From Parcubacteria group bacterium (GTDB taxonomy: Bacteria; Patescibacteriota; Microgenomatia; UBA1400; PJMF01): a stretch of DNA of 64,000 nt. This document shows, piece after piece, positions 38,144 through 53,705 of the stretch. The stretch is from positions 7,214 to 71,213 of the forward strand of contig CALQZX010000004.1 of NCBI GenBank assembly GCA_943350175.1, written 5' to 3'. Below the pieces are notes generated by a model. The model worked only from the letters and a program-made list of their open reading frames with translations. It did no database searches and was not told the DNA's origin. A program made the translations under genes and the position numbers. Numbering within the stretch: the stretch's first letter is position 1; each line of letters begins with the position of its first letter.

Positions 38144-38809
38144 ATGAAAGACTCAGATTGTTTACGCTATAAACTTGATGTTTTCTTCATGAAACACCAC
38201 CACATCTATTTAAAAAAGCACGAGCATTTACTCCAACCATATCAAAACATAAATTACGTCTACTACCTTTATCAAGGATCAATTAGACAATACTCTATCT
38301 CTAAAAATGGCAATGAACTCACGCTCGTGGTTTTCAACACTGGCACAATTCTATTCTTTCTACAACTTCTAGACTGTAAGAATGCCACTAGTAAATATTT
38401 CTATCAGGCACTTACTCCCTGCAAAATTTATGTCGCCACGTTGGAAGAAACTTGTAGTTTTCTTAGACAAAACACGCAGATACTTATTGATTTCATGCAG
38501 CGCCTTGGTCGAGGTTTGGAAGGTTTTTTAACTCAAATTGAATCAATTGCGTTGGGAAATGCAGACGAAAAACTCGCCACTCTACTGCTGACATTATCTC
38601 AAAGATTTGGTCAAAAAATTGAAAGAGGTACTCTCATCAGTCTACCTCTCACTCATTATGATTTGTCATGTATGGTCGGCACCTCCAGAGAAACAGCCAG
38701 TACAGTTTTAAAAAAAATGGAGCGTGCGGGAATTATTTTTAGACGTAAAAAGCAAACGGTCATCACTAATCCAAGTAAACTGGAAGAGTTAGCACTTTCT
38801 CACACATAA
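38144..38809 (+). CDS. Crp/Fnr-family transcriptional regulator
   Basis: cNMP-like beta-barrel, then LTHYDLSCMVGTSRETAS helix-turn-helix. Confidence 0.92.
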   Translation: MKDSDCLRYKLDVFFMKHHHIYLKKHEHLLQPYQNINYVYYLYQGSIRQYSISKNGNELTLVVFNTGTILFFLQLLDCKNATSKYFYQALTPCKIYVATLEETCSFLRQNTQILIDFMQRLGRGLEGFLTQIESIALGNADEKLATLLLTLSQRFGQKIERGTLISLPLTHYDLSCMVGTSRETASTVLKKMERAGIIFRRKKQTVITNPSKLEELALSHT

Positions 38810-38833
38810 TCAAATAATTGTTCGCTTAGCTTG

Positions 38834-40003
38834 TTACTTCTTCAACAAATATTTATATAGCATTTGATAGTAACTACCAAAACTCGCTGTTAGGAAAACA
38901 AAGCAAACTAAGCCGCCAAGAACTGGAATCATGCTAATGGTTGACAGCACTAAGGCACCAAGTAAAACTGGCTGCCAGCTTAATTCAGCGTTCTTTTTGG
39001 TAAATAATTTCATCAACCAAAGACCAAAGATAATGCTGGCAGTTGCCTTAGCTAACATCATCAGCAAACCATAAACTATTAGATTTAAGCCAGACAACCA
39101 AATACCAAATATCGTGAAAAATAAAATAATGCTAGCAATTGGCAGCATGATCATCAAAGTAAAACCCATGACAGCATTGGACCAAAAATTAGTCGACAGC
39201 TCTTTGGATGAATTTTTAAGTAATTTAATAAGTAACAAAAATATTGTGAAACTACTAACCAACGCCCCAACAAGCTTCATCATCCAAGTGCCAACTGCAA
39301 ATGCACCAAAGATTGAAGCAACTTCTTTATTTTCAAACTTTCCTTGAGAGCCAAAGCGTTCTTGATCTAATTTCTTGTAATCAACGACACCAGAAATAGT
39401 GGCATTATCTGCCATTTCGACTTCACGAGGGGAACTATAAGTGAGGTCACCTTTCAAGACTGCTTTATCACCCAGAACTAGTTCATCAGCTTCAACTTTC
39501 ACATCGCCAGTGATAGTGGAATTGATAATTACTTTTTTGCCACCTATAAATGCATCACCGACAACTGGAGCTTGCAGGTCAACTGTGCCTGCACCAGCAT
39601 AAAAACCTCCGCCAATTTTGGCTGCACTAGAAATAGTAAGGGTGCCTGCACCTACAAACAAATCATCGGCAATCTCGCTATCAATAACAACCGTTCCTCC
39701 TCCTAAATGAACAGAGCCTCCAACATTGCCCTTAACTAAAATTGTTTCACCACCAGCTTTGAGATCATCTTCCACATCACCATTAATATTTATGGTTTTG
39801 CCACCAAGATATAAACTTTTGGCAATATCGGCATCAATAGTTAAAAGATTGCCCGCAGCATACAAATTGCTTAACTTTTCACTAGCAGCTACTGTGACAT
39901 TTTCATTCTCTTTGAAACCAGTTCTAAACTCTGCAGCTTGAGCAGGAGTGCTATTCAAAATCAAACTTGATAAAAAAAACAAAAAGGCAAATAAGCGTTT
40001 CAT
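38834..40003 (-). CDS. Bactofilin-like beta-helix membrane protein
   Basis: Signal peptide, repeated I.G.V.GD(L/V)..GG units, multi-TM C-terminus. Confidence 0.75.
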   Translation of the reverse strand: MKRLFAFLFFLSSLILNSTPAQAAEFRTGFKENENVTVAASEKLSNLYAAGNLLTIDADIAKSLYLGGKTININGDVEDDLKAGGETILVKGNVGGSVHLGGGTVVIDSEIADDLFVGAGTLTISSAAKIGGGFYAGAGTVDLQAPVVGDAFIGGKKVIINSTITGDVKVEADELVLGDKAVLKGDLTYSSPREVEMADNATISGVVDYKKLDQERFGSQGKFENKEVASIFGAFAVGTWMMKLVGALVSSFTIFLLLIKLLKNSSKELSTNFWSNAVMGFTLMIMLPIASIILFFTIFGIWLSGLNLIVYGLLMMLAKATASIIFGLWLMKLFTKKNAELSWQPVLLGALVLSTISMIPVLGGLVCFVFLTASFGSYYQMLYKYLLKK

Positions 40004-40081
40004 ATGATCCTTTGTATATACTTAATATTTAGTATAGCAAAAAAATGGCTAAAAAATATATCATGCTATCATAGAGCGAAC

Positions 40082-41350
40082 ATGAATGAACAAGCATCTC
40101 TTATAACAAGTAGCGACAGACTCCAAATTATAGATCATTTAAATTTGCCGAAAGTTAACATCGGTTCTGAAGAGAGAAGTCGAAAACTTTTAGAACCAAT
40201 AAGAGTATCGCCAGAGCTATGGAGAAAGGCTGCTGAGATAGGAGGCAGAATTTCTGAATTAATCGATAAATTACCCAACTTACTTAAAGATTTTGAGAGT
40301 GCAAAAAATCTTTTTGGCATTACCGAAGAAGTATATAAAACAAGAATTGAACCGTTCTTAAAAATGCCATATCACGTATTATATTTTGGAGTTGATGCCG
40401 TGGTGTCAAATGGCGAAATAAAAATTGTTGAAATTAATCCACAAGCTGCTTCTTTGGGACGCTATGACGAACAGAATAGGCAAATAATTGGTGAAAAAGA
40501 TCCCAATTCATCAATAAGTCCTGCATTATTAGAAGCCATTAATGAAATCTTGCCTCAAAATAAAAGACCTTTGATTATTTCTCACCCAAGCAATGCTTTC
40601 CATGCCAATCATCAGCTTCTGGCACAACAAATAGGCTGCCAAATTGCAACACTGCAAGATTTAGAAGTCTCTGCTAGTGGTCAAATTCACATCAGTGGAA
40701 AAGAAATTGGATTACTATTTAAACAATTTAGCACCAATAACTTATTCGATCAAAGTATTTGTCCAAAACCATTATTTGATGCAATTCAAAACGGAAAAGT
40801 ATTATTAGCTAATAGTCCACTATTTCCATTTTTTGGAGACAAGGTATTTCTTGCAAAATTAGCTGAGTTAGATCCAATGCTTTCCCAGTATTTACCAAAA
40901 ATGGAAGTAATTAGATCAGACGCATCGAGCACTCTTTTTAAAAACATGGGTAAATGGCTGAAAGGCGAAACAAGAGGAGGAAAAGAGATTACATTGGAAC
41001 TTGCAGAATATCGTGGCGGATGGAAACAGAAAGTAATAGAAGCGATAGTAGCAGGTGATTATGAAGCAGCGATCAAAGCAATACCGGATGGATTAACAAG
41101 CAAAACAGCCGAAAGACTCAAGCAATACGCATTAGACGTACATCTCCATGGCACCAACTCTTGGCTTTTACAAGATCATTATCCTCCACAACAAGTAACA
41201 AATTCTGATGGCGATAATCTAAATACTCTCCTAAGAATGTATTTTGTTAGAGATAACAAAAAAACGCCAAGCACATTTATTGAATTTTTTGCTGGGGTCA
41301 AATCAAGGGTAAGCGCTGCTGGATTTACAATACCAGTGAGAAGTATTTAA
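40082..41350 (+). CDS. Orphan circularly permuted ATP-grasp-like ligase
   Basis: GVD...KIVEIN precedes DK, W.K, LQD, LRMYF (permuted order); start ATG 40082. Confidence 0.55.
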   Translation: MNEQASLITSSDRLQIIDHLNLPKVNIGSEERSRKLLEPIRVSPELWRKAAEIGGRISELIDKLPNLLKDFESAKNLFGITEEVYKTRIEPFLKMPYHVLYFGVDAVVSNGEIKIVEINPQAASLGRYDEQNRQIIGEKDPNSSISPALLEAINEILPQNKRPLIISHPSNAFHANHQLLAQQIGCQIATLQDLEVSASGQIHISGKEIGLLFKQFSTNNLFDQSICPKPLFDAIQNGKVLLANSPLFPFFGDKVFLAKLAELDPMLSQYLPKMEVIRSDASSTLFKNMGKWLKGETRGGKEITLELAEYRGGWKQKVIEAIVAGDYEAAIKAIPDGLTSKTAERLKQYALDVHLHGTNSWLLQDHYPPQQVTNSDGDNLNTLLRMYFVRDNKKTPSTFIEFFAGVKSRVSAAGFTIPVRSI

Positions 41351-41655
41351 TCTAAATTTCTAAAACCAACATAGGTCATAGCAAGAAGAATGAAAGTAAC
41401 GATGTAAAATTGAAAATGCGAAGGATTTGCCAGGATATTCATCAAGGGAGTGGATTGATTGGAAATTAAATGAAAGACAACGGATAGCGGCAAAGTGAAG
41501 CAAATCCAAGAAATAATGGGGACTTTAATGTGCAATTTGGACATTAGCCAATTTAGAATAGGTGAAATAATTAGAATACCCAGATAAGCAACCACTGTGT
41601 CAAAAATTGCAAACGGTCCTATTTTAAATTGGCGTAAATGTTCCAGAGAAATCAT
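41347..41655 (-). CDS. Small membrane protein
   Basis: LRQFKIGPFAIFD, three TM helices. Confidence 0.7.
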   Translation of the reverse strand: MISLEHLRQFKIGPFAIFDTVVAYLGILIISPILNWLMSKLHIKVPIISWICFTLPLSVVFHLISNQSTPLMNILANPSHFQFYIVTFILLAMTYVGFRNLD

Positions 41656-41664
41656 AGTAAAAGC

Positions 41665-41856
41665 TTAGTAAGCTTTTTTTACGCCGCTTGCTAGTGCTTT
41701 TTCAGCATTGTCTTTGGACATCATTGCACAAACAGTTGTTCCACACTTCTCGTGCTTACCTTTGGCCATAAAGCCACCTTTTTCAGTTTTGTGCATCTCT
41801 GGTGCTGACAACTCAACGCCTTTTTCTTTACATTTAACGCAATATCCTGTGATCAT
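41665..41856 (-). CDS. DUF5679-like small Zn-ribbon protein
   Basis: YCVKCK ... KGKHEKCGT; SD AAGGAAGG. Confidence 0.75.
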   Translation of the reverse strand: MITGYCVKCKEKGVELSAPEMHKTEKGGFMAKGKHEKCGTTVCAMMSKDNAEKALASGVKKAY

Positions 41857-42190
41857 GACCGCCTTCCTTTAATTATTAATTATCTACGTTCCATTGTAAC
41901 GCCTTTTTAGGATTCTCAATACCCTAAATTAGAACCTATTCGAATTCTTTCTTTTCTATAAAATCTTTTGTGTGAGACTGTGTTTCTAAGCTTTTTCTTT
42001 GCTGGTGTTTAATGGCACACCAATAGGCTTCTGTTTCTCCAGCTATTGCTACGAAAATTGTTCTCTAGACATCAGTTTTAAACAAATAGGAGTATGGTAA
42101 AACTGTTTTTTAATTGTAGGAGTTCTGTGATTCATCCTGGCAGTATAGCAGGAAGTTTCAACATGGTGACGGTTGCTCAATTTCTTTACT

Positions 42191-42233
42191 CTCCGACCAA
42201 GCCGTTACACGGAAAAGGCGGATGAGGTGGTTT
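42191..42233. repeat. Cassette-boundary site A (degenerate tRNA-end fragment + core + right arm)
   Basis: ctcc-GACCAAGCCGTTACACGGAAAAGG-cggatgaggtggttt; 24 bp identical to 43549 and 46829. Confidence 0.9.
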
Positions 42234-42247
42234 TTGATAACCAATCA

Positions 42248-42700
42248 TTACCCAACTGGCTCCATTCTGTAGAACATAAGTTCTTGATTGCTATCTATCT
42301 GGGCGAATCTTGGCTTACCTTTTTTCCATTGTCCAAATTCATAATGAATCCCATTAATTTTCCCAAGATACAAAGCGACATGAGTAGGTAAACCAAAATC
42401 AAGGTAAACAATGACATTAGAGTTTCCTCTATTGCCCCTATCATCAACATTCACATCGCCGATTGCCCTGAGTGTTTCGCTTCTAATAGAGCCATATTGA
42501 TTTAGAAAATCATCAATACTAACTGCCTTATTTGAATCTTGCATGCCCAAAAGGTACATGGCCAACCCAGAACAAACAGAGTTCTCATGATCTCTGCTAT
42601 TTAATTACTCTAATACCTTAGCGTATACCGATGAGCCGAATATCTCTTGGACTCTATTTAAAAATATATCATGAAATTTAGATTGCTCTTCACCACTCAT
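42248..42700 (-). pseudogene. NlpC/P60-like peptidase with an in-frame stop
   Basis: ATG 42700 is in frame with the listed ORF; single TAA at 42605-07; CSGL and HVALYLG motifs. Confidence 0.65.
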
Positions 42701-42730
42701 AATAATCAGATTATATAAGAAGATGCATTT

Positions 42731-43414
42731 TTATACATGGATTGATTCGCATAATTTAAAAAGAAGTAAGTTGTTATTTTCAAACGACTGCTGCATGAGT
42801 GTGCCCAAATACATGGCCAAGTAATATTCTTGCATATAAAGAAACGACAAACGTTGGTACAAAGTACCCTCACCAGCATCGTGTGGATCATTCATACTAA
42901 AATCCAAAGTAGCTATGCATTTCCTCCTAATTTTTTTGCTAATTTTATTGGGATCATTCAGAGAAACAAGAATCGTATTTAGCGTTACTAAGGTTTCATC
43001 AAATTGAGTTGGTTGGTGACTCTCAGGATCTACACCTGGAATGCGCCCCATTAATGCCTTAACAACCGGATGAGTTCCTCCACCATATTTATATCGTGAT
43101 CCTTTTTCTACAACATCCGTTCCAGCACTGAGTACCTCAATAAAATTATCTAGCCCTAATTCTGTAATGTGTTTTTTTAATGCAATTAAAAACAGTGGGC
43201 TTCTTCCCATATTTTCATCACAAACAATAAGAAATCTGATTTTCCCGTATCGGAATATTCTTTCAGTTAAACTTAGTTCGCACGTGATAATTTGTTTTAA
43301 GATTAGACTTGAATCAATCCCAATCCGTATCAAATCATTAATAAGTCTCTTGATAAAATTGGTTTTATGAGTAGATTCAGCTCCTGTGCAGCACTCTTTT
43401 AAAGACGGCGACAT
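42731..43414 (-). CDS. LMW-PTP/ArsC-like CX5R protein (copy 1)
   Basis: VCDENMGRSP, SAGT, H.P.Q, DP; start ATG 43414, 6 nt after TATAAT. Confidence 0.75.
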   Translation of the reverse strand: MSPSLKECCTGAESTHKTNFIKRLINDLIRIGIDSSLILKQIITCELSLTERIFRYGKIRFLIVCDENMGRSPLFLIALKKHITELGLDNFIEVLSAGTDVVEKGSRYKYGGGTHPVVKALMGRIPGVDPESHQPTQFDETLVTLNTILVSLNDPNKISKKIRRKCIATLDFSMNDPHDAGEGTLYQRLSFLYMQEYYLAMYLGTLMQQSFENNNLLLFKLCESIHV

Positions 43415-43455
43415 GGAGGAATTATACACTCAATATTTAGACCACTAACAGCTAC

Positions 43456-43551
43456 TGTCACCAGACTAAACTGTCCAGTTGTGGTTATATAAGTAAAAAA
43501 AAAGATTAATATGTAAAGATAAATTTACTATCTTGAAAAAAGCTCCCCGAC
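43456..43551. repeat. Diverged copy of the ~95-bp tRNA-Asn downstream flank including the tRNA 3' end (sites B-C)
   Basis: Aligns end to end with 47688-47781 (about 75-80% identity by eye), ending GCTCCCCGAC. Confidence 0.9.
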
Positions 43552-43580
43552 CAAGCCGTTACACGGAAAAGGTGGGTGAG
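43549..43580. repeat. Cassette-boundary site C (core + right arm)
   Basis: GACCAAGCCGTTACACGGAAAAGGTGGGTGAG, 32 bp identical to 46829-46860. Confidence 0.95.
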
Positions 43581-43610
43581 AGAGTTTTTAAATAACAAGA
43601 AAATCGCTAT

Positions 43611-45398
43611 CTAATCCGAGAATAAATATAGATATTGCTCGTAGCCCTCCGCTTGCATTTCCTCTTTTGGCACAAAAAGCAGAGATGCGGAATTTGTGCA
43701 AAACCTGCGACCACCCTCTTCTACAGGACCATCATTAAACACATGACCCACATGTCCAGCGTCACTTCGCACTTCAGTACGAGCTGTGGATAAAGAATTA
43801 TCCTCATGAAGTGTCACTGAGTCGTCGTCGATTGTTCTCCAGAAACTTGGCCAACCAGTGCCTGAGTCATATTTATGTGTACTTGAAAAAAGAGGCTTTT
43901 TCGTAACAACATCAACATAAATTCCTTCTGCCTTGTTGTCCCAATATTTGTTGTTGAAGGGCGATTCGGTGCCATTTTCTGCTACGACATGATAAGCGAG
44001 TGGATCTAAATTTTTAAGTTTTTCCGCCATCTCCTCATCGGTATACTCATAATCAGATTTCTGCTTTTCTTCAAGAAATTTTATTGCAGCATCTTTTGCC
44101 CAAGTCTCCTCTATAAAACCAGCTCTACCTGAACCATTTTTATACTGCTCATAGTGATCTTTAGCTTTTTTATAGTAGTCTTGATGATAATCTTCTGCCT
44201 TAAAAAAATCAGAGAAAGGCAATATTTCTGTAGCTACTTCATTATCAAATAAACCGCTATCTTGCAATCTTTTCTTAGAATCAAGAGCGATGTCCTTTTG
44301 CTTGTCATTATGGAAATAGATGGCAGTTGTGTACTGATGACCCTTATCTGCAAATTGTCCTTCCGCGTCAGTTGGGTCGATGTGTGACCAATACATATCT
44401 AGAATCTTTTCGGTTGAGATCGCTTGAGGGTCATAAGTTATTTGAACAGCCTCTCGATGTGAAGTAGCACCTTTTGATACTTTTAGATAAGATGCATCTT
44501 GCTCATTTCCACCTGTATATCCAGAAACCGCATCTATTACTCCTGTCTGCTCTTGGAAATTTGCCTCAGTGCACCAAAAACAGCCACCTGCCAAAGTTAT
44601 TGTTTCATAATTTTTTTTATTCATATTATTCCTTATAGTAGAATCTTCATTTTTTATATTAATCACTGGCGAAAAACGCTCTATCAGTGATTCTTCAAAA
44701 TCGATTGTTGCTCCATAACCAGAATCAAGAATTGCTGTTTCTAGTTTTTTATCGTATCCAGTCAAAATAGCCACTCCAACTAAAATGATAAGCGCTCCAA
44801 ATATCTGTTTTATGCGAGTAGCTGCTCCCATGTGACTAGTAATTTTCTTTACCAGTTGCCCACCAAAAAAAGCGATTAGTAAAAGCGAGATTGCGAGTCC
44901 AATGGTGAAACCTAAGAGATATACAAATCCTAGTAAAAATCCTGCTGGTAAGATGGTGGCGATAATAAATAAATAGGTTGGCGAACAAGTAGTAAAAACT
45001 GGCCCAAGGGCCAATCCAATAAGAGCATCACCAGCGTAGTTTTTTTTACCAAAACCAACGCCCATTACCTTGCTGCCGGCGTCATGAATTTTTTGTACAA
45101 ATGATATTCGCGACCACAAAGACGGAAAGACGATAACAAGACCGACAAGTATGATCACTACACCAGAAAACACATTCCAAAAACTTTGTGGGATATCGAT
45201 GAGAAGTGTTGAGGCTTTCAGAAGAAGCGTGAAGATAACAACCGATACAGAGAGTGATCCTATCACTACTAGCGATCGCCTTGAAATTCGACGATCATTA
45301 GTTTCGGAAGCACCGATGATGACAGGAAGAAGAGGCAGGACACATGGGGCCAGAGCAGTTAGTATGCCTGCCAGTATTGAGATGAGTAAAAAGATCAT
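43611..45398 (-). CDS. msrAB: CcdA-MsrA-MsrB fusion (methionine sulfoxide reductase with membrane electron-transfer domain)
   Basis: CcdA: APCVLP...TTCSP, six TM; MsrA: AGGCFWC, AEDYHQDYY; MsrB: KYDSGTGWPSF, GHVF, RFCTNS. Confidence 0.9.
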   Translation of the reverse strand: MIFLLISILAGILTALAPCVLPLLPVIIGASETNDRRISRRSLVVIGSLSVSVVIFTLLLKASTLLIDIPQSFWNVFSGVVIILVGLVIVFPSLWSRISFVQKIHDAGSKVMGVGFGKKNYAGDALIGLALGPVFTTCSPTYLFIIATILPAGFLLGFVYLLGFTIGLAISLLLIAFFGGQLVKKITSHMGAATRIKQIFGALIILVGVAILTGYDKKLETAILDSGYGATIDFEESLIERFSPVINIKNEDSTIRNNMNKKNYETITLAGGCFWCTEANFQEQTGVIDAVSGYTGGNEQDASYLKVSKGATSHREAVQITYDPQAISTEKILDMYWSHIDPTDAEGQFADKGHQYTTAIYFHNDKQKDIALDSKKRLQDSGLFDNEVATEILPFSDFFKAEDYHQDYYKKAKDHYEQYKNGSGRAGFIEETWAKDAAIKFLEEKQKSDYEYTDEEMAEKLKNLDPLAYHVVAENGTESPFNNKYWDNKAEGIYVDVVTKKPLFSSTHKYDSGTGWPSFWRTIDDDSVTLHEDNSLSTARTEVRSDAGHVGHVFNDGPVEEGGRRFCTNSASLLFVPKEEMQAEGYEQYLYLFSD

Positions 45399-45399
45399 A

Positions 45400-45909
45400 T
45401 TATTGTAATTGTGATACTAAATTTTCTAACTTTGAACCGCCGCTCCATTTTTTAATCAAATTGCCATCTTTATCCACCTGCACCAAAGTATGCTGAGTAG
45501 TAACGCCATATTTTTTCTTTAATTCTGTCTCCTCATCGTAATCAGTTTTAAGGATAGTAAGCCCATCAGGTATATTGGCTGCATTCTTTTCTATATCAGC
45601 ACTCAACCCACGACATGTTGGACACCACGATGCATGAAAAAAGAGGACTACATCGCCAGTTGCTGCCAAAGCAATTTTTTCTGAACCATATGCTTCGTAA
45701 GAACCTGTCCTAGTTGTTTTATTTTTCTCATCTGCGCTACCTTTTTCAATCATTTTTTCTGGTGCTTGTGCTTCAATTGTTGGCACCTCATCTTTAACCA
45801 CCTCAACTTCTTCAACCATATTTTGCACATCTTTTTTATTACTAGAAAAAACAACAAAGCCTATTCCTAAAAAAAATATTATTAGTGCGATCCCAATATT
45901 TTTGTTCAT
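45400..45909 (-). CDS. Membrane-anchored thioredoxin-family protein
   Basis: N-terminal TM, FHASWCPTC, KYGVTTQHT. Confidence 0.88.
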   Translation of the reverse strand: MNKNIGIALIIFFLGIGFVVFSSNKKDVQNMVEEVEVVKDEVPTIEAQAPEKMIEKGSADEKNKTTRTGSYEAYGSEKIALAATGDVVLFFHASWCPTCRGLSADIEKNAANIPDGLTILKTDYDEETELKKKYGVTTQHTLVQVDKDGNLIKKWSGGSKLENLVSQLQ

Positions 45910-45912
45910 TTT

Positions 45913-46206
45913 TTATCTTTCTGTTGAAAATAATTTTAATAATTTAGATAAAGCGTTTGATAATTCATTCTTGGCTGGTAGATAACACATCGTCTGACCC
46001 ATTCTATGACCCTCAACTACACCGTTAGCTGATAGATATGCCAGCTGATGCGAAGTTAGTGACTGAGAGATTTGTGCTAATCTTGAAATTTCATTTACAC
46101 ACAGGTCTTTTTCTGCGTTATAAATAATATATAAAATCTTGAGCCTACTTTTATTGCTCAGCATTTTCATCAATATCACTATTTCTGCTTCGTTTTTTAT
46201 CAGCAT
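45913..46206 (-). CDS. ArsR/SmtB-family regulator
   Basis: LSNKSRLKIL, LCVNEI, SQSLTSHQL, R.GQ. Confidence 0.88.
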   Translation of the reverse strand: MLIKNEAEIVILMKMLSNKSRLKILYIIYNAEKDLCVNEISRLAQISQSLTSHQLAYLSANGVVEGHRMGQTMCYLPAKNELSNALSKLLKLFSTER

Positions 46207-46212
46207 ATTTCA

Positions 46213-46244
46213 AGTTATGAAGATATGTGATTATATTCATAACT
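46213..46244. promoter_or_regulatory. Putative ArsR operator overlapping the -10
   Basis: AGTTATGAA-N14-TTCATAACT; TATAAT on the - strand at 46230-35. Confidence 0.65.
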
Positions 46245-46356
46245 AAATTAATAATAATACGTACGAAAAAATTTTACAATGTCCACATGAATACTTTGAC
46301 AACAATGAAGTGTTGAAACACGAGCAAAAAAATATGAAAATAACTAGAGAATTGGT

Positions 46357-46728
46357 CTATTCAAGCTTCCACCCAAGCAAAGCAAATAAAATAGATTTTT
46401 TTCTTCCTACTATTGGTTCAGCATCAATTTTTAGCACATCTTCTCCCGCAATCTGAACATAGTTTTCAACCCCAGCAGCCGCCACGACTCTTCTTTGCGC
46501 CTGTTTATGACTTCCGCCACCTTTACCACTGGTTATTTCGACATGCATCTCCAGCCCTGTATTTCGATCCACCAAGTAAAAATCTGGAACAGTAACTTTT
46601 TTTAAATTATCACCAAGTTTATTAGCAACTGGCTCTGGAGATCTAATTGGCTTCCCTTCTTGGACATCCAACCCAATTGCCTTGGCATTTTTTCTAAATA
46701 GTCTTTCAGTTATTATCCCTTCTGCCAT
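46357..46728 (-). CDS. Small PD-(D/E)XK nuclease-like protein
   Basis: E..F helix, TVPDFYL, HVEIT, KQAQ. Confidence 0.5.
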   Translation of the reverse strand: MAEGIITERLFRKNAKAIGLDVQEGKPIRSPEPVANKLGDNLKKVTVPDFYLVDRNTGLEMHVEITSGKGGGSHKQAQRRVVAAAGVENYVQIAGEDVLKIDAEPIVGRKKSILFALLGWKLE

Positions 46729-46811
46729 AGATTGTTATTCTACATTAACAAAGCAAGTTAAACATTAAATAAAAATTATAAGTAAAATTGCCAATAAAGA
46801 ATCTGATTCCT

Positions 46812-46867
46812 ACAGCTCATGTCACCATGACCAAGCCGTTACACGGAAAAGGTGGGTGAGGTGGTTT
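46812..46867. repeat. Cassette-boundary site D (left arm + core + right arm)
   Basis: ACAGCTCATGTCACCAT-GACCAAGC-CGTTACACGGAAAAGGTGGGTGAGGTGGTTT. Confidence 0.9.
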
Positions 46868-46945
46868 ATAACATATTCTAAATACACCTCACTCTCCTCA
46901 CCGGCGGTTCTCCTGCAATAAGAGCAGGTAGTATATACCAGCGGT

Positions 46946-47656
46946 ATGAGCATTGAAGAGAATATAGATGAAAATGAATTGCCTCGTAACCAACTTCATC
47001 CGGTAGACGAGTTTTTGCATACTATTCTTTTTAGTTTTGTATTAGACGGTGGTGATAGAATAACATACGATAACTTGAGACATTTGTTTGGGGTTATTGC
47101 TTCATACTACCCCGGCAATAAAGAAAAACTCAGACAAGCTAAACCACAAAAAATTTTAGTGATTTGCGATCAGAATCAAGGTAGAAGCCAAATAGCAGAG
47201 TTTCTCGTTCAGTCATTTGGTGATGTACTAGGCATGAATCTAAAAGTTAAAAGCGCTGGCCAACATGCTACACTTGATAAATATGGAGGTCGGCCTAGTC
47301 CAGTTGTTCGTAAAAACTTAACAAAGTTGGGCATCCCCATTGAAAACGCCACAGTTGATCAGCTTCAAGAAAGCGATATTGACAATGAAACAATAGTAAT
47401 TATATTGAAAAGCTCTTCAGATCTCCCTGAATTTATTTACAATGCTCGTCTTGTTATAGGCGAATATCTAGCAGATCCTTTCCCAGAATCAAAAATTCCA
47501 AAAACTAACGATGAAAGGCTGTTTGAACTATTTGACTCTATTACCTATTTCACGGTCAGCTTTGTATTGAAACTGGCCAAAGCAATTGAAGCTAAAGACA
47601 ATAATCTCAATGACTTCAAAAAATACTTCGCCAGCAAAATTATTCGCAAAAATTAA
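46946..47656 (+). CDS. LMW-PTP/ArsC-like CX5R protein (copy 2)
   Basis: ICDQNQGRSQIAE, KSAG, KYGG, ADPF. Confidence 0.78.
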   Translation: MSIEENIDENELPRNQLHPVDEFLHTILFSFVLDGGDRITYDNLRHLFGVIASYYPGNKEKLRQAKPQKILVICDQNQGRSQIAEFLVQSFGDVLGMNLKVKSAGQHATLDKYGGRPSPVVRKNLTKLGIPIENATVDQLQESDIDNETIVIILKSSSDLPEFIYNARLVIGEYLADPFPESKIPKTNDERLFELFDSITYFTVSFVLKLAKAIEAKDNNLNDFKKYFASKIIRKN

Positions 47657-47687
47657 ACTTACAATTTTGACAAATAAATGCAGTCCG

Positions 47688-47781
47688 TGTCACTAGATCA
47701 AGCTGTCCAGCTGGGGTTATGTAAGTGAAAAAGAATTGATATATGAAGCTAAATTAGCTGTCTTAAAAAATGCTCCCCGAC
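47688..47781. repeat. tRNA-Asn downstream flank carrying site E (left arm + GATCAAGC core)
   Basis: Homologous to 43456-43551. Confidence 0.9.
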
Positions 47782-48100
47782 TAGGACTCGAACCTAGAAC
47801 CTTGAAGTTACATGACACCCTCTTGTTTCCAAGAGGCACGGACTATCTCATCATCCTTTATTTGTCGTCGTACCTAAGTACAACAAAAATAAAGGAGCAG
47901 GGCGCTTAGACAACCGGAGTTGTCACTGGTGTAATCACCTAGTCTCTGCACCTTCTCCATTACTGGAGCTTGGCTCAGGATCAGCTTGTTTACCAAAGTA
48001 AATTTAGCTTTCCCTGAGTTCACCCTGTTTTCATTTCCGCATTGCTGCGAAACGCTGCCAACTAAGACAGCTTCCTGCTCTGCCATTGAGCTATCGGGGA
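47773..48100 (-). tRNA. tRNA-Asn(GTT), intron-containing; exons 48100-48067 and 47810-47773
   Basis: Spliced sequence TCCCCGA TA GCTC AATGGCA GAGC A GGAAG CTGT|TAA CTTCA AGGTT CTAGG TTCGAGT CCTAG TCGGGGA G; CCA not encoded. Confidence 0.93.
47811..48066 (-). ncRNA. Group I intron (256 nt, no internal ORF)
   Basis: P1 GCTGT|C with GGCAGC (U.G at splice site), P3 CAGGGTG/CGCCCTG, P4 CTCAGG/CCTGAG, P7 GACTA/TAGTC, P9 CCTCTTG-GAAA-CAAGAGG, terminal G. Confidence 0.93.
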
Positions 48101-48161
48101 TTGTTCACTTGTTAAAAACAGATGCAATTTTATCAACTAATCAGACAAAATACCAGAGCTA

Positions 48162-48890
48162 TTAAACTCGCTCAATTTCTCCCACCACCGCCATGTGATC
48201 GCTAGTATTTGAGACAACTCTCACCTCTCCAGCACTGTAATGAGGAGTGGTAAAAAGAGCATCAACTATCAAACGAATGTCTTTGCCAGATTTATGTAAA
48301 TTTTTATCGATCGTCGTATCAATGTTTAAAGGAATATTATCAGTATATTTCTTGGCCAAATCATCCCAAATCTCAGCACCACGCTGAGTATTAAGGTCTC
48401 CGCAGATAATCAAATCATCAAATTTATTCAAGAACTCTTTCAAAAGAACATAATCTCTCTTCTGACCTTCGTTAACCATTGGGCCACCAGACCAAGTGAA
48501 GTGGACAGTGGCAACCTGGAAATCTCGCCCAGCAACCCTAGCCTTGACGACCAAGGCTACACGATCAGTTAAAGATGGATGATCGTTATCAAAAGTAGCT
48601 AAAACACCATTTTCATGGCCAAAATAATAAAAAGCTTCATGACTCACAATTTCTTTAGCAAAAACAGCCACCCCCCATGGACCTCTAAGGGGCAAGTGGT
48701 CATTGGGATTAATAATATTGGCTTGTGGATAAAAGAAGCAATTTTTAAGCCCAGAAGCTTCTTTAATCATCTCTAAATCACATTCGAAAATCTCTTGTAA
48801 AGCTAGCACATCTGGCTTTTCTGCCATCACAAATGGCAAAATACGCTCAAAATGTTTATTACCTTCAATGTTAATTGAGATAAATTTCAT
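48162..48890 (-). CDS. Endonuclease/exonuclease/phosphatase (EEP) family protein
   Basis: SINI, PDVLALQE, TVH, CGDLN, VD, SDH. Confidence 0.9.
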   Translation of the reverse strand: MKFISINIEGNKHFERILPFVMAEKPDVLALQEIFECDLEMIKEASGLKNCFFYPQANIINPNDHLPLRGPWGVAVFAKEIVSHEAFYYFGHENGVLATFDNDHPSLTDRVALVVKARVAGRDFQVATVHFTWSGGPMVNEGQKRDYVLLKEFLNKFDDLIICGDLNTQRGAEIWDDLAKKYTDNIPLNIDTTIDKNLHKSGKDIRLIVDALFTTPHYSAGEVRVVSNTSDHMAVVGEIERV

Positions 48891-48902
48891 AGGCAGAGGA
48901 AA

Positions 48903-50054
48903 TTATTCCAAGAAATCTTGTAATTTCTTACGTTTGCTTGGATGCTTGAGCTTACGTAGAGCCTTAGCTTCAATCTGACGAATACGCTCACGAGTGACAC
49001 CAAATTCTTTACCAACTTCTTCCAAAGTCATAGTTCTGTTGCCAGCTAGACCAAAACGCATGCGCAAAACTTTGGCTTCACGATCAGATAAAGCTTTCAA
49101 AACTTCTTCGACATTCTCAGACAGCATTTGTTTACTGGTGGTGTCATAAGGACTGTCTTGCTTATCGTCAGCAATAAAATCTCCAAGGGTACTGTCATCT
49201 TCACCGTCACCAACTGGAGTTTCCAGAGAAGTGGTATTTTGAGAAATCTTGAGAATCTCGCGGACCTTTTCCGGCTCCAATTCCATCTTTTCACCAATCT
49301 CTTCTGGGGTAGGTTCACGGCCCAAATCTTGCATCAGACGGCGTGAGGTACGCATTAATTTATTAATGGTTTCAACCATGTGAACAGGAATACGAATGGT
49401 ACGAGCCTGATCAGCAATGGAACGAGTAATAGCTTGGCGAATCCACCAGGTAGCGTAAGTGGAAAATTTGAAACCTTTGGTCCAATCATATTTCTCCACA
49501 GCGCGAATCAAACCTTTGTTACCTTCTTGAATCAAATCTAGGAAAGTCATGCCGCGACCAATGTATTTCTTGGCGATGGAAACGACTAAACGCAAGTTGG
49601 CATCGATGAGGCCTTTTTTGGCTTTATCACTACCAGACTCAACTTCTTGAGCAAGACGAATTTCTTCCTCTCTATTTAGCAAAGGTATACGACCGATTTC
49701 TTTGAGGTACATTCTGACAGGATCAGAAACACCCACACTACCAAGATTGGCTAGAACATCCAATTCTTGCTTGAGCACATCTTCATCACCAGCAGTTTCA
49801 TCTTTGGAAACTGATTCGAAAATATCAATGCTTTTCTTGAAAAAACGATCGTACAGATCATCAAGTTCCTCGACGTAAATTTCTGGTTCCACAAAAACAT
49901 CCAAGATCTCATCTTGAGTGACATAGCCACGAGAGCTAGCAACTTTGAAGAGTTGTTTGATGTCTTCTATTAGAGATTTAGGAATTTTTTTGACTTTTTC
50001 TGCTTTTTCTACTGGGGTTTTTTCTACTGACTTGTCGGGGGTTTTATCGGTCAT
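48903..50054 (-). CDS. rpoD: Primary sigma-70 factor
   Basis: [58 protein letters not shown]. Confidence 0.97.
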
Positions 50055-50058
50055 AAGA

Positions 50059-50223
50059 TTAGATTCGTAGCGAAATAAAAATGAGTTAATTAATAATAGA
50101 TTTTACGATATTTTAGTCTTTTCTGATGACGATAGTAGCTTAGTCTACTTGAGGAAGAAGAAAAGAAATAAAATACGTAAAAGATAAATTAAGAAACCGT
50201 TTTTTATTTCGCTACGAATCTAA
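50059..50223 (-). promoter_or_regulatory. 165-nt hairpin spanning the predicted rpoD 5' leader
   Basis: Perfect 23-bp inverted repeat 50059-81/50201-23 with further nested pairing inside. Confidence 0.75.
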
Positions 50224-50246
50224 GTGTATAATTATACACTTAGATT
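50217..50246. promoter_or_regulatory. 30-bp perfect palindrome with TATAAT on both strands (likely rpoD promoter)
   Basis: AATCTAAGTGTATAATTATACACTTAGATT; TTGCTT 16 bp upstream on the - strand. Confidence 0.75.
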
Positions 50247-50316
50247 GCCAAAAAGCAACAACTAAAGGAGGAAAACCCACTTGCAAAAAGCTTGACAAAA
50301 AAATGAAATAAAAAAA

Positions 50317-51093
50317 TTAGAACAAAGGCCACTCTAAAGTTGGAGTAAGAAAAACTGGTTTTCTGGCTTGAACAACAACCATGTATTCGAACATCGCTGC
50401 TTTGGCACCTGAAGTGGACTTGATGGTCCAGCCATCTTCTTCCATGTAAACACCATCGTCCTCTGAAGCAATTACTTGGGCTTCTACGCACAAAACTTCA
50501 CCTCTTCTTAGAGTCAGGCCATTGCGAATTTTTCCCCAAGCTGGAATCTGTGGTTCATCATGCATGGTAAAACCAATGCCATGGCCAACAAATTCTTTGA
50601 CTGTGCTGAAACCTGCTTTTTCTGCCACGCTGGCCATAGTAAAACCAAGATCTCCCACTTGATTGCCAATAATTGCTTTGCGAGCCGCTTCTTGAACACT
50701 GCGGCGAGCAACTTTCATCAAACGCAAATCTTCTTCGCTTGGTTGGCCAATCGATTTGGTAAAACAGTGATCAGTGTAGAAACCGTCTTCGATAATGCCA
50801 AAGTCAACTTTAACCATGTCACCCTGAACCAGGGGAATATCTGTTGGAATGCCGTGCACTACGCCATCATTAACCCCGATACAAGTTGTGTAACGATAAG
50901 GATTTTTTCTGGAACCAACGCCTTTGAAAGCTGGAATAACGTTATTCTTTTGACAAAGTTTCTCTGCTAATTTATCGATTTCAATAGGGGTCGCTCCTTC
51001 AACAGTGGCCTGCCAAAGTTGCCATAGAATATCAGTCGATTTCTTACCGATTTCTTGGTATCTAGCTAATTGATGGTCAGAGTTAATAATCAT
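50317..51093 (-). CDS. map: Type I methionine aminopeptidase
   Basis: VNDGVVHGIP, VDFG..DG..TD, GHGIG..MHDEP, E ligands. Confidence 0.9.
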   Translation of the reverse strand: MIINSDHQLARYQEIGKKSTDILWQLWQATVEGATPIEIDKLAEKLCQKNNVIPAFKGVGSRKNPYRYTTCIGVNDGVVHGIPTDIPLVQGDMVKVDFGIIEDGFYTDHCFTKSIGQPSEEDLRLMKVARRSVQEAARKAIIGNQVGDLGFTMASVAEKAGFSTVKEFVGHGIGFTMHDEPQIPAWGKIRNGLTLRRGEVLCVEAQVIASEDDGVYMEEDGWTIKSTSGAKAAMFEYMVVVQARKPVFLTPTLEWPLF

Positions 51094-51126
51094 AATCTAG
51101 ATCTGTATTTTAACACTTCAAATCAA

Positions 51127-52497
51127 TTAATTCTGATTGAACCTATAAACGTTACCATCGGTCAATTTTGTTAACTGCTCATTCACGAGATCAATTTTGA
51201 CCAAATAGCTTTTGCCATTATCATGGGTGGAACCAGTTTCATTGACACTAGTGACAAAAGTGCTTTCATCTAACCACCAGCCATAAATAGAGTAAGAGCT
51301 TGTTTTTGATTCTGGGGTCGCTCTTTTGATTTGGCCAGTTTTGAAATCATAATAGTGTAAGCTATCAATTGCTCTATTCTGACCATCTAGGTTTGATCTC
51401 ATATAGAGAAACTTACTCTCTTCTGGAGAAACTGAAGCAAATGGCTGAATATCAGCCCAACGACCGCTATCTAGAACTTTAGTTTCCTTGGTATTTAAAT
51501 TATATAAACCAAGCACTGACGAAGAAGCTTGGCCAGGAACATCACCGGTTTGACCCTCAATCTTTACTATGAAGTTTGATTTCAGAAATGGCGTGGCTCC
51601 ATAACCAAAAGTATCAGCTGGATGAACCATGGAAATTTGCTTGGTCATAAGATCCATTACTTTGAGACCATTCTTCTGATATTCCATGCTAATGAAATAA
51701 AGCTTTTTGTTCTCCAAATCCCACTTGGAAACAATTACGGATTCTCCGAGTGAGATGTTAGTTTTAGTGACAAAATCATAAAGATAATCGCCATTTGGCA
51801 GATTTGGTTCTGAACTTGGTTCGCAAGGACCAAAACCACCTTCAAATCCTGGCTCAATCGTCATTGGAGGACAGGCTTCAGAAAAGAAAACCCCATAAAC
51901 GAGCATTGAGCCGTCTGGAGCAATGTTACTTAGACTATTAATAGTTATCGATTCATTCACTTCTGGTTTTGGATGTTTAATCAATTCGTATTCTTTAGTT
52001 TCTCCATTCAAAATGTCTTTTATGTAAATAGTTCCACTCACATCAGCCTGCGAAGGAGCAGGATTTTTCGTGAAGAAAACTTTTGAGCTATTTGGGTATT
52101 TAAAAACTGAATAAAAATCTGGCAATTCAATTTGCTTTTTATCGCCATTTAGCGTCAGCAGCCAAGCTTGGAGATCATGAGACACATCTTTATTTGGATC
52201 CACGGTAAACAGAAATTCTGTTTCTATTTTCTGAGTAACCGGAGCAATGGGGGTCGCTGTTGAAGTTTCTGGATTTTCTGCCAATTCGGCTTGATCGCTG
52301 GTGATATTTTCAGAAACCACCGGAGTTTGTTTATTGAAAAAATAACCAAGAAAAAAAGCCAAAATAATCAGTAAAGCGGTTAAAAAGGGAAAAATAACTG
52401 GTTTCTTTGGTTTTATTTGTTCTGTTGTTGGAATCTGCGTTTCTTGAGTTTGTTCCACCGTCATCGGTTGTTGAGAGATATTTTCCATAATACCCAT
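51127..52497 (-). CDS. Membrane-anchored TolB-like beta-propeller protein
   Basis: Single TM, APDG, SPEE, WLD blade motifs. Confidence 0.6.
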   Translation of the reverse strand: MGIMENISQQPMTVEQTQETQIPTTEQIKPKKPVIFPFLTALLIILAFFLGYFFNKQTPVVSENITSDQAELAENPETSTATPIAPVTQKIETEFLFTVDPNKDVSHDLQAWLLTLNGDKKQIELPDFYSVFKYPNSSKVFFTKNPAPSQADVSGTIYIKDILNGETKEYELIKHPKPEVNESITINSLSNIAPDGSMLVYGVFFSEACPPMTIEPGFEGGFGPCEPSSEPNLPNGDYLYDFVTKTNISLGESVIVSKWDLENKKLYFISMEYQKNGLKVMDLMTKQISMVHPADTFGYGATPFLKSNFIVKIEGQTGDVPGQASSSVLGLYNLNTKETKVLDSGRWADIQPFASVSPEESKFLYMRSNLDGQNRAIDSLHYYDFKTGQIKRATPESKTSSYSIYGWWLDESTFVTSVNETGSTHDNGKSYLVKIDLVNEQLTKLTDGNVYRFNQN

Positions 52498-53705
52498 TAG
52501 ATCACAAACTGGCCATCCTGGTAAATCAGCACTTCTTTACCACTCTGTAAAACCGCCGTGACAGTTCGATCAGTGGTGGTCATCATGTCGGTGTGTTCAG
52601 CAGAATCGTTAAAACCCATGTCTTCCCATTCTTGCGGAGTAACTTTGCTTGGATCACCGCGGAAACAATCTTTGTAAGCCATACCAATGGCTAAGTGAGA
52701 ATTGCCATAACGACCGCCGATGTTTTCATCGAATAAAGTTTCTGCCATTACGTGAGTAATGCGTGACATACGCTTATCAGTCATAGAAAATTCACCGAAT
52801 TTATTAGCATCTTTGGTTTCCAACATGGTCTGCAAAAACTTATCACCTTGTGTAGCCTTGGCTTCGACGATGAGACCGTGCTCAACTCTCAAGTAAATTC
52901 CTTTAATAATGTTGCCATAGCGATAAAGTGGTTCATTAAACTTGATCCAGCCATCAACTTCTCTCCAATCTGGAGAAGTAAAGATTTCAAAGCTTGGTAT
53001 ATTGCGACCACTGCCGCCCTGCCAAATACGATTGGCACCAATTTTAACCTTCAAATCGACATCTTCACCTTTGACCAAAACGTACTCAATTTTCATGTCA
53101 TTGAGTTTATTTTTCACTTCTTCTTGAGTGGCCAAGATTTCTTTCCATTTGGCCACTGGATCAACCTCATCCAAGAAACAAGCATCGATGATTTGTTGCC
53201 AATAGTCTTTGAGGCTAAGTCCGACTTCTTTGGCCTTGGCTTCTACGCCCCAAAGAGCGACTGTCCAGGTAAATTTGCCGTGATTTTCTTTATCAACCAA
53301 CCAATCACGATAAGACTTCTGAGTGTTGCGAGCCAACATGATCTTGTGTGGATTAACTTCTGATAATTCGGAAGAGTCTGGCTCAGCAATGATACTTATT
53401 TGATGATCAAGTAATTCAGCTTTAGCTCTGGAAAATTCACGAGGGAAAAAGCTTAATTGCTCATCATTGGCTAGAGTATAAAAATCTTTATCAAAACCAG
53501 TTGGAATTAAGCGCATGATGGGATGAGCGCCAGCCTTAAGCAAAGTGTTTTGCAAAGCTAAAGCCATAGGCTTAGCCACATCTGGCACACTACACTGCAC
53601 GACTTCACCTTTTTTCACTCCTGCTCCAGAATTAAGAGCAAAGTTGACCAAGACGTGAGCGTACTTGTCGATAATATTTTGTGGGGGTTGATAGGAATCT
53701 GACAT
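52497..53705 (-). CDS. M29 aminopeptidase (AmpS/AmpT)
   Basis: NIPSFEIFTSP, FGE, LFDEN, HLAIG.AY, NDSAEHTD; start ATG 53705. Confidence 0.92.
   Translation of the reverse strand: MSDSYQPPQNIIDKYAHVLVNFALNSGAGVKKGEVVQCSVPDVAKPMALALQNTLLKAGAHPIMRLIPTGFDKDFYTLANDEQLSFFPREFSRAKAELLDHQISIIAEPDSSELSEVNPHKIMLARNTQKSYRDWLVDKENHGKFTWTVALWGVEAKAKEVGLSLKDYWQQIIDACFLDEVDPVAKWKEILATQEEVKNKLNDMKIEYVLVKGEDVDLKVKIGANRIWQGGSGRNIPSFEIFTSPDWREVDGWIKFNEPLYRYGNIIKGIYLRVEHGLIVEAKATQGDKFLQTMLETKDANKFGEFSMTDKRMSRITHVMAETLFDENIGGRYGNSHLAIGMAYKDCFRGDPSKVTPQEWEDMGFNDSAEHTDMMTTTDRTVTAVLQSGKEVLIYQDGQFVI

Follow-up and report, generated by a model that had tools for sequence, protein, structure and literature searches.

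The window analysed here is a stretch of 64,000 nucleotides from a Parcubacteria group bacterium (contig CALQZX010000004.1, positions 7,214 to 71,213). It contains a tRNA-Asn gene with a series of repeated junctions at its 3' end. We think it likely that this region is a stack of short cassettes without recombinase genes, that the cassette borders are attachment sites of large serine recombinases (LSRs), and that LSRs of larger elements at the same tRNA add and remove the units. An earlier reading of the sequence (the first-pass annotation) had proposed very small non-autonomous cassettes, inserted in succession at the 3' end of the tRNA by a recombinase encoded elsewhere. This proposal is supported: relatives of this bacterium have arrays at this tRNA, recombinase-free units, and loci with LSR genes.

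Junctions at the tRNA-Asn gene

The first-pass annotation described six junctions, A through F, that share an 8-bp core and carry arms called L1, R1 and R2. All six are present with those arms in the places described, except that site D has an extra T between L1 and the core. The 24 bp common to the three copies of core plus R1 were recovered as three exact copies, and the duplication of a ~95-bp module next to the tRNA end was confirmed; we call this module M. In the direction of the tRNA, a cassette has GGGGAGC first; a right arm (here M) comes next, followed by the cargo and finally by a P arm (here R1). The features, in positions of the window, are:

47772..48100, minus strand: tRNA-Asn(GUU), assigned from the sequence; the same anticodon loop is found in intron-less relatives, and ARAGORN gives Asn in the relative G224
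47811..48066, minus strand: group I intron in the anticodon loop (Rfam RF00028, 99.9 bits); contigs from public runs X1-X3 omit exactly these 256 nt
47772-47793: host-side (B) arm of the insertion site, that is, the T-arm and 3' end of the tRNA
47772..47778, minus strand: GGGGAGC of site F, the putative crossover region, where homology between loci stops
47683..47771, minus strand: copy 1 of M (R2, core E and L1), the right arm of cassette 1
46829..46921, plus strand: R1 of cassette 1, its P arm, which includes a recombinase-tail frame of 30 codons
46812..46836: site D, a P arm fused directly to the tail of M, lacking GGGGAGC and ~85 bp of M
43542..43614, plus strand: site C, a displaced GGGGAGC (43542-43548) and a P arm with a 23-codon tail frame
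43452..43541, minus strand: copy 2 of M (site B), with its distal motif decayed
42188..42269, plus strand: site A, the P arm farthest out; its tRNA end is decayed and its tail frame has 27 codons

At 89 nt from the crossover, copy 1 of M closes with the T-arm motif in inverted orientation. The flank that is common to relatives starts at 41928, ~260 bp outward of site A. Because the 256-nt group I intron splits the tRNA-Asn, ARAGORN overlooks or mislabels this tRNA gene. The intron is present in some relatives and absent from others. Group I introns have reportedly been described in tRNA genes of Patescibacteria; our literature search did not turn up that report.

The repeats of the array are confined to this single locus. 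We searched the whole assembly (G000; 1.01 Mb in 28 contigs, 96% complete). With up to 6 mismatches, the R1 32-mer matched only at sites A, C and D; R2 matched only at B and E (up to 3 mismatches). The first-pass annotation had raised the possibility that R1 is the end of an insertion sequence (IS) or a miniature inverted-repeat transposable element (MITE); the repeats are not scattered through the genome. No exact or near-exact R1 was found in 60 relatives (3 mismatches), in viral contigs or in metagenome contigs. Eleven matches of an R1 19-mer in a genome-contig collection had unrelated flanks and look like chance. A short hairpin is located at ~46850-46905. A 9-nt word beside site A (42160-42172) recurs inverted at site D (46820-46829), which may be chance.

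Cassette arrays in related genomes

The cassette-array system is real and widespread. Of the 14 other genomes of the genus, 3 have module M next to the tRNA (83-85% identical), each time followed by unrelated cargo, and the length of M is nonetheless maintained at ~88 nt. A model of M built from sequence only matched 26 of 140 genomes of the family at E <=0.001, 14 of them below 1e-10. Ten of these 14 had contributed training sequences; the independent ones are G224, G030, G006 and G068. A site matrix for the P arm gave 88 matches in the direction of the tRNA and none on the opposite strand in 1.38 Mb of fetched loci.

In G225 (C1:384700-425800; L101, L102, L115, L118), two LSR elements behind the tRNA-Asn are followed by 31 sites, that is, 30 units, in 41 kb. 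This array makes up ~4% of the genome. Counting the tRNA, there are nine sites in G224, six in G090 and five in G117. Autonomous elements occur in tandem with cassettes at tRNA-Asn in G146, G224, G225, G001 and G117.

We collected 82 site-to-site units of less than 6 kb from 30 loci that were chosen for having sites, of 95 fetched regions. The units have a median length of 1237 bp. A single frame of at least 80 aa was found in 46 of the 82, and most cargo frames (121 of 142) are in the direction of the tRNA. None of the units matched any of nine recombinases (seven LSRs and two tyrosine recombinases). The comparison of tRNA-Asn loci that the first-pass annotation had suggested came out as it anticipated in one respect, in that cassette number, order and cargo vary among relatives, but the breakpoints are not at the core.

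Several other arrangements were seen. Sites in G006 and G030 that seemed to consist of the tail of M only are in fact preceded by decayed P arms of other classes. An M-like module lies ~150 bp after a tRNA-Lys(TTT), not a tRNA-Asn, in G027 (C14:27859-28180; L259). The array of G147 contains a displaced, almost complete 3' half of a tRNA, with the same terminator-like flank as at the tRNA (L082, L083; G151, G147). Other right-arm types, located at G225 (L115 and L102), G063 (L089) and G105 (L159), have a second palindromic stretch of 37-42 nt, counted by eye, with paired T-arm-like motifs directly after the crossover. These second stretches are possibly spare attB-like sites.

The arms resemble attachment sites of large serine recombinases

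In 68 of 71 tRNA arms, a T-arm-like motif starts 22 nt ahead of the end of GAGC. In the P arms, the motif lies at 27 nt in 38 of 58 (3 are at 28 and 17 are ambiguous; eight arms with a decayed GGGGAGC were omitted from this count). Sites C and D of the window have the spacing of 27. Serine integrases have a 5-bp motif shift between attB and attP, according to the available text of PMC3783163. Of 29 loci that have an LSR gene or an LSR-like tail at the tRNA, 10 show a mirror motif, 20 nt to the right. Judged by these sequences, R1 looks like the P arm of an LSR attachment site.

R1 is also, as far as sequence can tell, the severed C-terminal tail of an LSR. The frame through the crossover on the LSR-coding strand has a median of 30 open codons, compared with 15 and 10 for the two other frames (61 sites). 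Tail peptides of the P arms group into conserved classes, and synonymous changes are in excess beyond the binding motif (8 versus 4.4 and 11 versus 3.7 expected). The three R1 copies of the window score on a tail-class profile for which two of them were training rows. The full 515-aa LSR P0013 has an R1-type tail at its end. In G001, a 95-aa LSR remnant, 92% identical to the end of the G032 enzyme, continues in frame into a homolog of R1. Arms of related type are found in several further families of the class. The tail profile gave five matches among 1.84 billion proteins, none of them a full LSR.

At the far end of M, the inverted motif probably gives the enzyme a second place to bind. The motif was found at 36 of 120 sites, 87-90 nt from the crossover, or at 49 nt in another type of arm. 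It is present in 22 of 43 units with R1-like arms at their end and in 1 of 18 with beta arms, counts that are not independent. A -10-like box lies 15-19 nt past the motif in 13 of the 36, compared with 0-3 in other 5-nt intervals; the window's own copies are not among the 13. The left part of M may also resemble a site for integration host factor (IHF).

Candidate recombinases

An LSR match of at least 250 aa was found directly behind the tRNA-Asn in 20 of 71 loci of relatives (G084, an unpublished genome, included), and M is there in seven. These LSR genes read toward the tRNA and run into its 3' end. Both of the enzymes checked have Resolvase, Recombinase and Zn-ribbon domains. LSR elements precede M-type cassettes in G146, G224 and G225, and LSR tail remnants and decayed junctions are common.

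The contig studied here has no match to an LSR or a tyrosine recombinase, and the genome has no matches to the four transposase families tested (IS110, IS200, rve and IS1595). These results agree with the first-pass annotation, which had recognized no integrase or transposase in the 64 kb. Elsewhere in the genome there are three LSRs, in islands at tRNA-Lys and tRNA-Asp, that are 20-24% identical to the tRNA-Asn enzymes. The islands are at C1:148776-162330 (with a type I restriction-modification-like cluster) and C5:42912-51620, and their LSR genes read into the tRNA ends. The two tyrosine recombinases of the genome are Xer-like: Xer models are their best matches, and on TIGR02249 they reach 105 and 73 bits, against a cut-off of 265. 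A tRNA-Ser gene is at the start or end of four contigs (C2, C4, C9 and C24), with two anticodons, each found twice. These contig ends are possibly further insertion hot spots that did not assemble.

The best candidate enzyme is the ~486-aa clade of G032, because three cases (G001, P0013 and P0002) show an R1-type tail fused to this clade or to a tail like it. We treat it as a lead, since such fusions also arise when an element merely lands beside a cassette.

Cargo genes of the window

The cargo genes, from the tRNA outward, are:

46946..47656, plus strand: 236-aa gene with the low-molecular-weight (LMW) phosphatase fold, antisense to the tRNA (PF01451, E 2.9e-9)
46357..46728, minus strand: predicted 123-aa nuclease with the PD-(D/E)XK fold (Atlas structure neighbours, TM 0.53-0.66)
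43611..46350, minus strand: ArsR-thioredoxin-CcdA-MsrA-MsrB unit (Pfam)
45913-46206, minus strand: ArsR
45400-45909, minus strand: thioredoxin
43611-45398, minus strand: CcdA-MsrA-MsrB fusion
42731..43429, minus strand: 232-aa gene with the LMW-phosphatase fold (PF01451, E 5e-4, below the cut-off)
42248..42700, minus strand: broken papain/NlpC-like gene with one in-frame stop (start approximate)

The outermost gene had been annotated as NlpC/P60. It is papain/NlpC-like, an assignment backed by Atlas structure neighbours of a homolog in G225, but it is broken by the in-frame stop. The G225 homolog is an intact 152-aa gene, 61% identical, that forms a one-gene cassette. Two homologs of the 232-aa phosphatase-fold gene (48% identity) are in an island of G026. 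The 236-aa gene has a homolog in 1 of 285 other genomes, just past the G225 array, and no viral locus was found in a search with it. The R1 tail frame at site D is in frame with this gene, with a single stop codon between them (46829-47656).

The nuclease gene was probably a cassette of its own that has lost its P arm. Homologs are found in 18 of 285 other genomes, near tRNA-Asp, tRNA-Gly or tRNA-Thr in three genomes of the genus. No P or M sites were found within 1.5 kb of these homologs; thus, they lend no support to the cassette status of the nuclease gene. A promoter scan of the region found 19 compared to 20.5 expected, that is, chance level. Just outside the array (38144-41350) are genes for a CRP-family regulator, a bactofilin-like membrane protein and an ATP-grasp-like protein.

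Rearrangements at cassette borders and the origin of site D

The same cassette can be found at different ranks. The rank-1 cassette of G117 is 89% identical to an inner cassette of G224 (1-1105 and 1-1106, respectively), and the neighbours, which differ, begin exactly at GGGGAGC. The 8-bp core had been taken as the crossover. This is not supported: breakpoints are at GGGGAGC, the tRNA end, and the core varies widely among P arms.

We compared positions 38500-52500 with contigs from four public runs at 85% likeness; some of these contigs are from related organisms. A very close relative is present in run X1, with 7 differences in 2041 nt of flank. In one X1 contig, 42218 and 46356 are joined through 51 letters, which places a nuclease gene beside site A, and the two intervening units are absent. 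The phosphatase unit is present on other X1 contigs. A second X1 joint connects 46867 to 47766. In X2 and X3, 46350 is connected on a contig to the tRNA end (47768), so that the ArsR-thioredoxin-MsrAB unit (93% identical in X2) occupies the first rank. These contigs show variation at the borders, not excision. The first-pass annotation had divided the region into three units. The junctions that delimit them are there, but the middle unit looks like two fused cassettes. Based on the joints in X1-X3 and on the one-gene cassette that the papain-like homolog forms in G225, there are probably four or five cassettes in all, some of them fused by deletion.

Site D had been interpreted as a circle junction. 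Instead, it is probably a deletion; that it is the product of a second site is a good deal less likely. There are 127 inner P-arm matches, of which 88 retain at least five of the seven letters of GGGGAGC. The remaining 39 are near the opposite-strand background of 30, and D alone among them is followed by the tail of M. P and M cores are alike in this genus only, and this likeness could have provided microhomology for an 85-bp deletion at D. It is likely that both D and the fusion near 46350 arose by deletion, and that the nuclease gene thereby became fixed in its place between the adjoining genes.

How the cassettes may move

According to our model, an LSR gene would span its own attP, and integration would sever the last 20-40 codons, which would be left in the P arm. 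The tRNA with M would remain the target, and each newcomer would displace older units outward, where decay would follow. The most likely route of cassette movement is cis-mobilisation. An LSR element would integrate at the border of tRNA and M, ahead of a cassette, and would later excise by way of the far P arm of that cassette. The cassette would be transported along to a new host and eventually left there. This route would need no more than textbook reactions, and it fits the LSR elements found ahead of M-type cassettes. A close alternative is action of LSRs in trans on free cassette circles. According to the available text of PMC5704250, the LSR TndX does not need a directionality factor, and because some LSRs have no such need, action on free circles is also conceivable.

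A bolder version of this alternative is that the system is a serine-recombinase analogue of the integron. Cassettes of 0.4-3 kb with matched ends would be moved singly at tRNA-Asn by LSRs acting in trans, in arrays of 30 units and genomes of 1 Mb. A second enzyme-binding motif in the right arm would also mark the promoter of the cargo, the P arm would contain the tail that the enzyme lacks, and a cassette could complete the frame of the LSR behind it. We consider this less likely than not.

Several observations weigh against the proposal that LSRs of larger elements add and remove the units. The LSRs of this genome are dissimilar from the tRNA-Asn enzymes and lie at other tRNAs, so no cognate enzyme was found in the 96%-complete assembly. 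We found no LSR element bounded by M on its left and by an R1-type arm on its right as its own ends. The mirror motif is absent from M at 20 nt, and a circle that joins P and M would therefore not be a canonical attP. Among the matches listed, the R1-type tail scored on 1 of 120 LSRs, and no class-wide tail match lies in a long frame. The P-arm models were aligned to GGGGAGC with no gaps allowed, a mild bias toward a single spacing. Many of the units are from one genome, G225, and the counts are therefore not independent. G117 and G224 provide the only pair of whole units shared between genomes (2 of 82 units). The X1 joint at 42218 is inside the common R1 24-mer and could be a product of homologous recombination. 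Finally, no excised circles or circle junctions were seen among the run contigs, which are contigs and not reads.

Could the units instead be passive fossils, that is, immobile deletion remnants of full-size LSR elements, in arrays that change only by homologous recombination between repeats? The P arms retain a signature of having coded for LSR tails. In its left part, M has a weak likeness to the tail DNA of a single LSR clade (9.4-9.6 bits for 2 of 29 tails; the best of 400 shuffles had 4.5). Tail remnants and decayed junctions are common, as noted above, and decay to cis-mobilisable elements (CIMEs) is a published path (PMC5704250, available text). Each of these points favours fossils. However, one cassette was found both first in rank and further inside an array, its borders exact each time, M keeps its length next to unrelated cargo, the left and right end types are matched, cargo frames are largely co-oriented, and 30 units in 41 kb would be hard to reach by independent deletions. 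We regard fossils as improbable. An even less probable alternative is that the 8-bp core is the crossover of a separate recombinase, with an attI-like site in M (R2-core-L1) and cassettes that circularise as R1-core-L1 (site D). It is true that D is a clean hybrid of R1 and L1, that the P and M cores are alike in this genus, that homology of M stops sharply past L1, and that across genomes the distal motif and the P motif vary together (permutation p 0.015, 11 genomes). But within genomes there is no such co-variation (p 0.68), the P and M cores differ in other genera, and other deletions of M have different endpoints. In addition, D has an extra base and is a single case among 127 arm matches, compared to the 88 that keep GGGGAGC.

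The integron-like platform of the first-pass annotation, taken as a true integron or a cluster of attC sites lacking integron integrases (CALIN), does have some likeness to the array: the units are co-oriented and mostly have one gene, and one G225 junction folds well as single-stranded DNA (z -4.7). However, there is no IntI in the genome, where the best scores are far from the cut-off, and an alignment of 16 modules has no consensus structure (3 pairs, 0 compensatory changes). Junctions of the window do not fold (z -0.4 to -1.2). A search for an attC-like hairpin in joined own-end junctions was also negative; these fold no more consistently than array junctions. An origin as IS or MITE ends has against it the single locus of the repeats and the absence of the four transposase families named above. 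Integrons, CALINs and IS or MITE ends are all very improbable here.

Comparison with known systems

Few routes to the gain of accessory genes have been described for the uncultured, small-genome bacteria of this group. The arrays provide defined attB, attP and cassette sequences together with candidate enzymes, and gene capture could be tested on plasmids in E. coli. The G225 array is the best model system that we have seen. LSRs that target a tRNA and have their tail swapped upon integration are a possible source of new integration tools and also of an unusual directionality switch. If cassettes do move singly, then integron-like behaviour would have been reached with a different class of enzyme.

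Integrons and CALINs are arrays of small co-oriented cassettes, the newest likely beside the anchor. The arrays described here have neither IntI nor an attC hairpin, and their borders are copies of a tRNA end and DNA of recombinase tails. The composite islands of the staphylococcal cassette chromosome (SCC) are tandem cassettes built by LSRs, some without ccr; their target is rlmH and the elements are much larger.

Tandem islands that lack a recombinase are already published, as CIMEs and as the ssrA islands of Dehalococcoides. Arrays of ~1-kb matched-end cassettes linked to LSRs at tRNAs in this group were not found in the literature searched (main texts, with subscription journals mostly uncovered). 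The word tRNA is absent from the main text of an LSR survey (PMC10083194).

The arms described here resemble the sites of the Listeria LI/A118 serine integrase, in which the zinc-ribbon binding motif is shifted by 5 bp between P and B arms (PMC3783163, in part). The Resolvase, Recombinase and Zn-ribbon domains of the tRNA-Asn enzymes are a further likeness. M differs from these sites in having no mirror motif at the canonical distance, and instead one 87-90 nt out (49 nt in the second arm type). In the tycheposons of Prochlorococcus, repeated integration at a tRNA likewise displaces older elements outward and leaves partial tRNAs. According to the excerpts available, 910 of 937 tycheposons use tyrosine integrases, which they encode themselves, and cargo reaches 10 kb or more (bioRxiv 10.1101/2020.12.28.424599).

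CIMEs and their accretion with ICEs (integrative conjugative elements) and IMEs (integrative mobilisable elements) are also similar, as described in the sections of PMC5704250 at hand: integration and transfer genes are lost, attL and attR are kept, elements stack at tRNA ends, and CIMEs move with a neighbour. CIMEs differ in being decay products, mostly of elements with tyrosine integrases; units of the type found in the window are small, have matched standard ends, and occur up to 30 in a row. The ssrA islands of Dehalococcoides have the DsiB recombinase (McMurdie et al. 2011, PMC3146451, seen in part). There, 15 islands without an integration module were suggested to be cis-mobilisable, and DsiB is a serine recombinase of ~540 aa whose gene overlaps attP and attL, hence its variable C-terminus. 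As in the arrays described here, the islands are in tandem at the 3' end of a stable-RNA gene; the overlap of recombinase gene and att site matches what we propose for the LSRs at tRNA-Asn. They differ in their target (tmRNA), in their borders (20-bp direct repeats) and in having a six-gene module. The conserved right-arm module and the arrays of 1-kb, one-gene units, features of the tRNA-Asn loci, do not appear in the parts of that account that were available.

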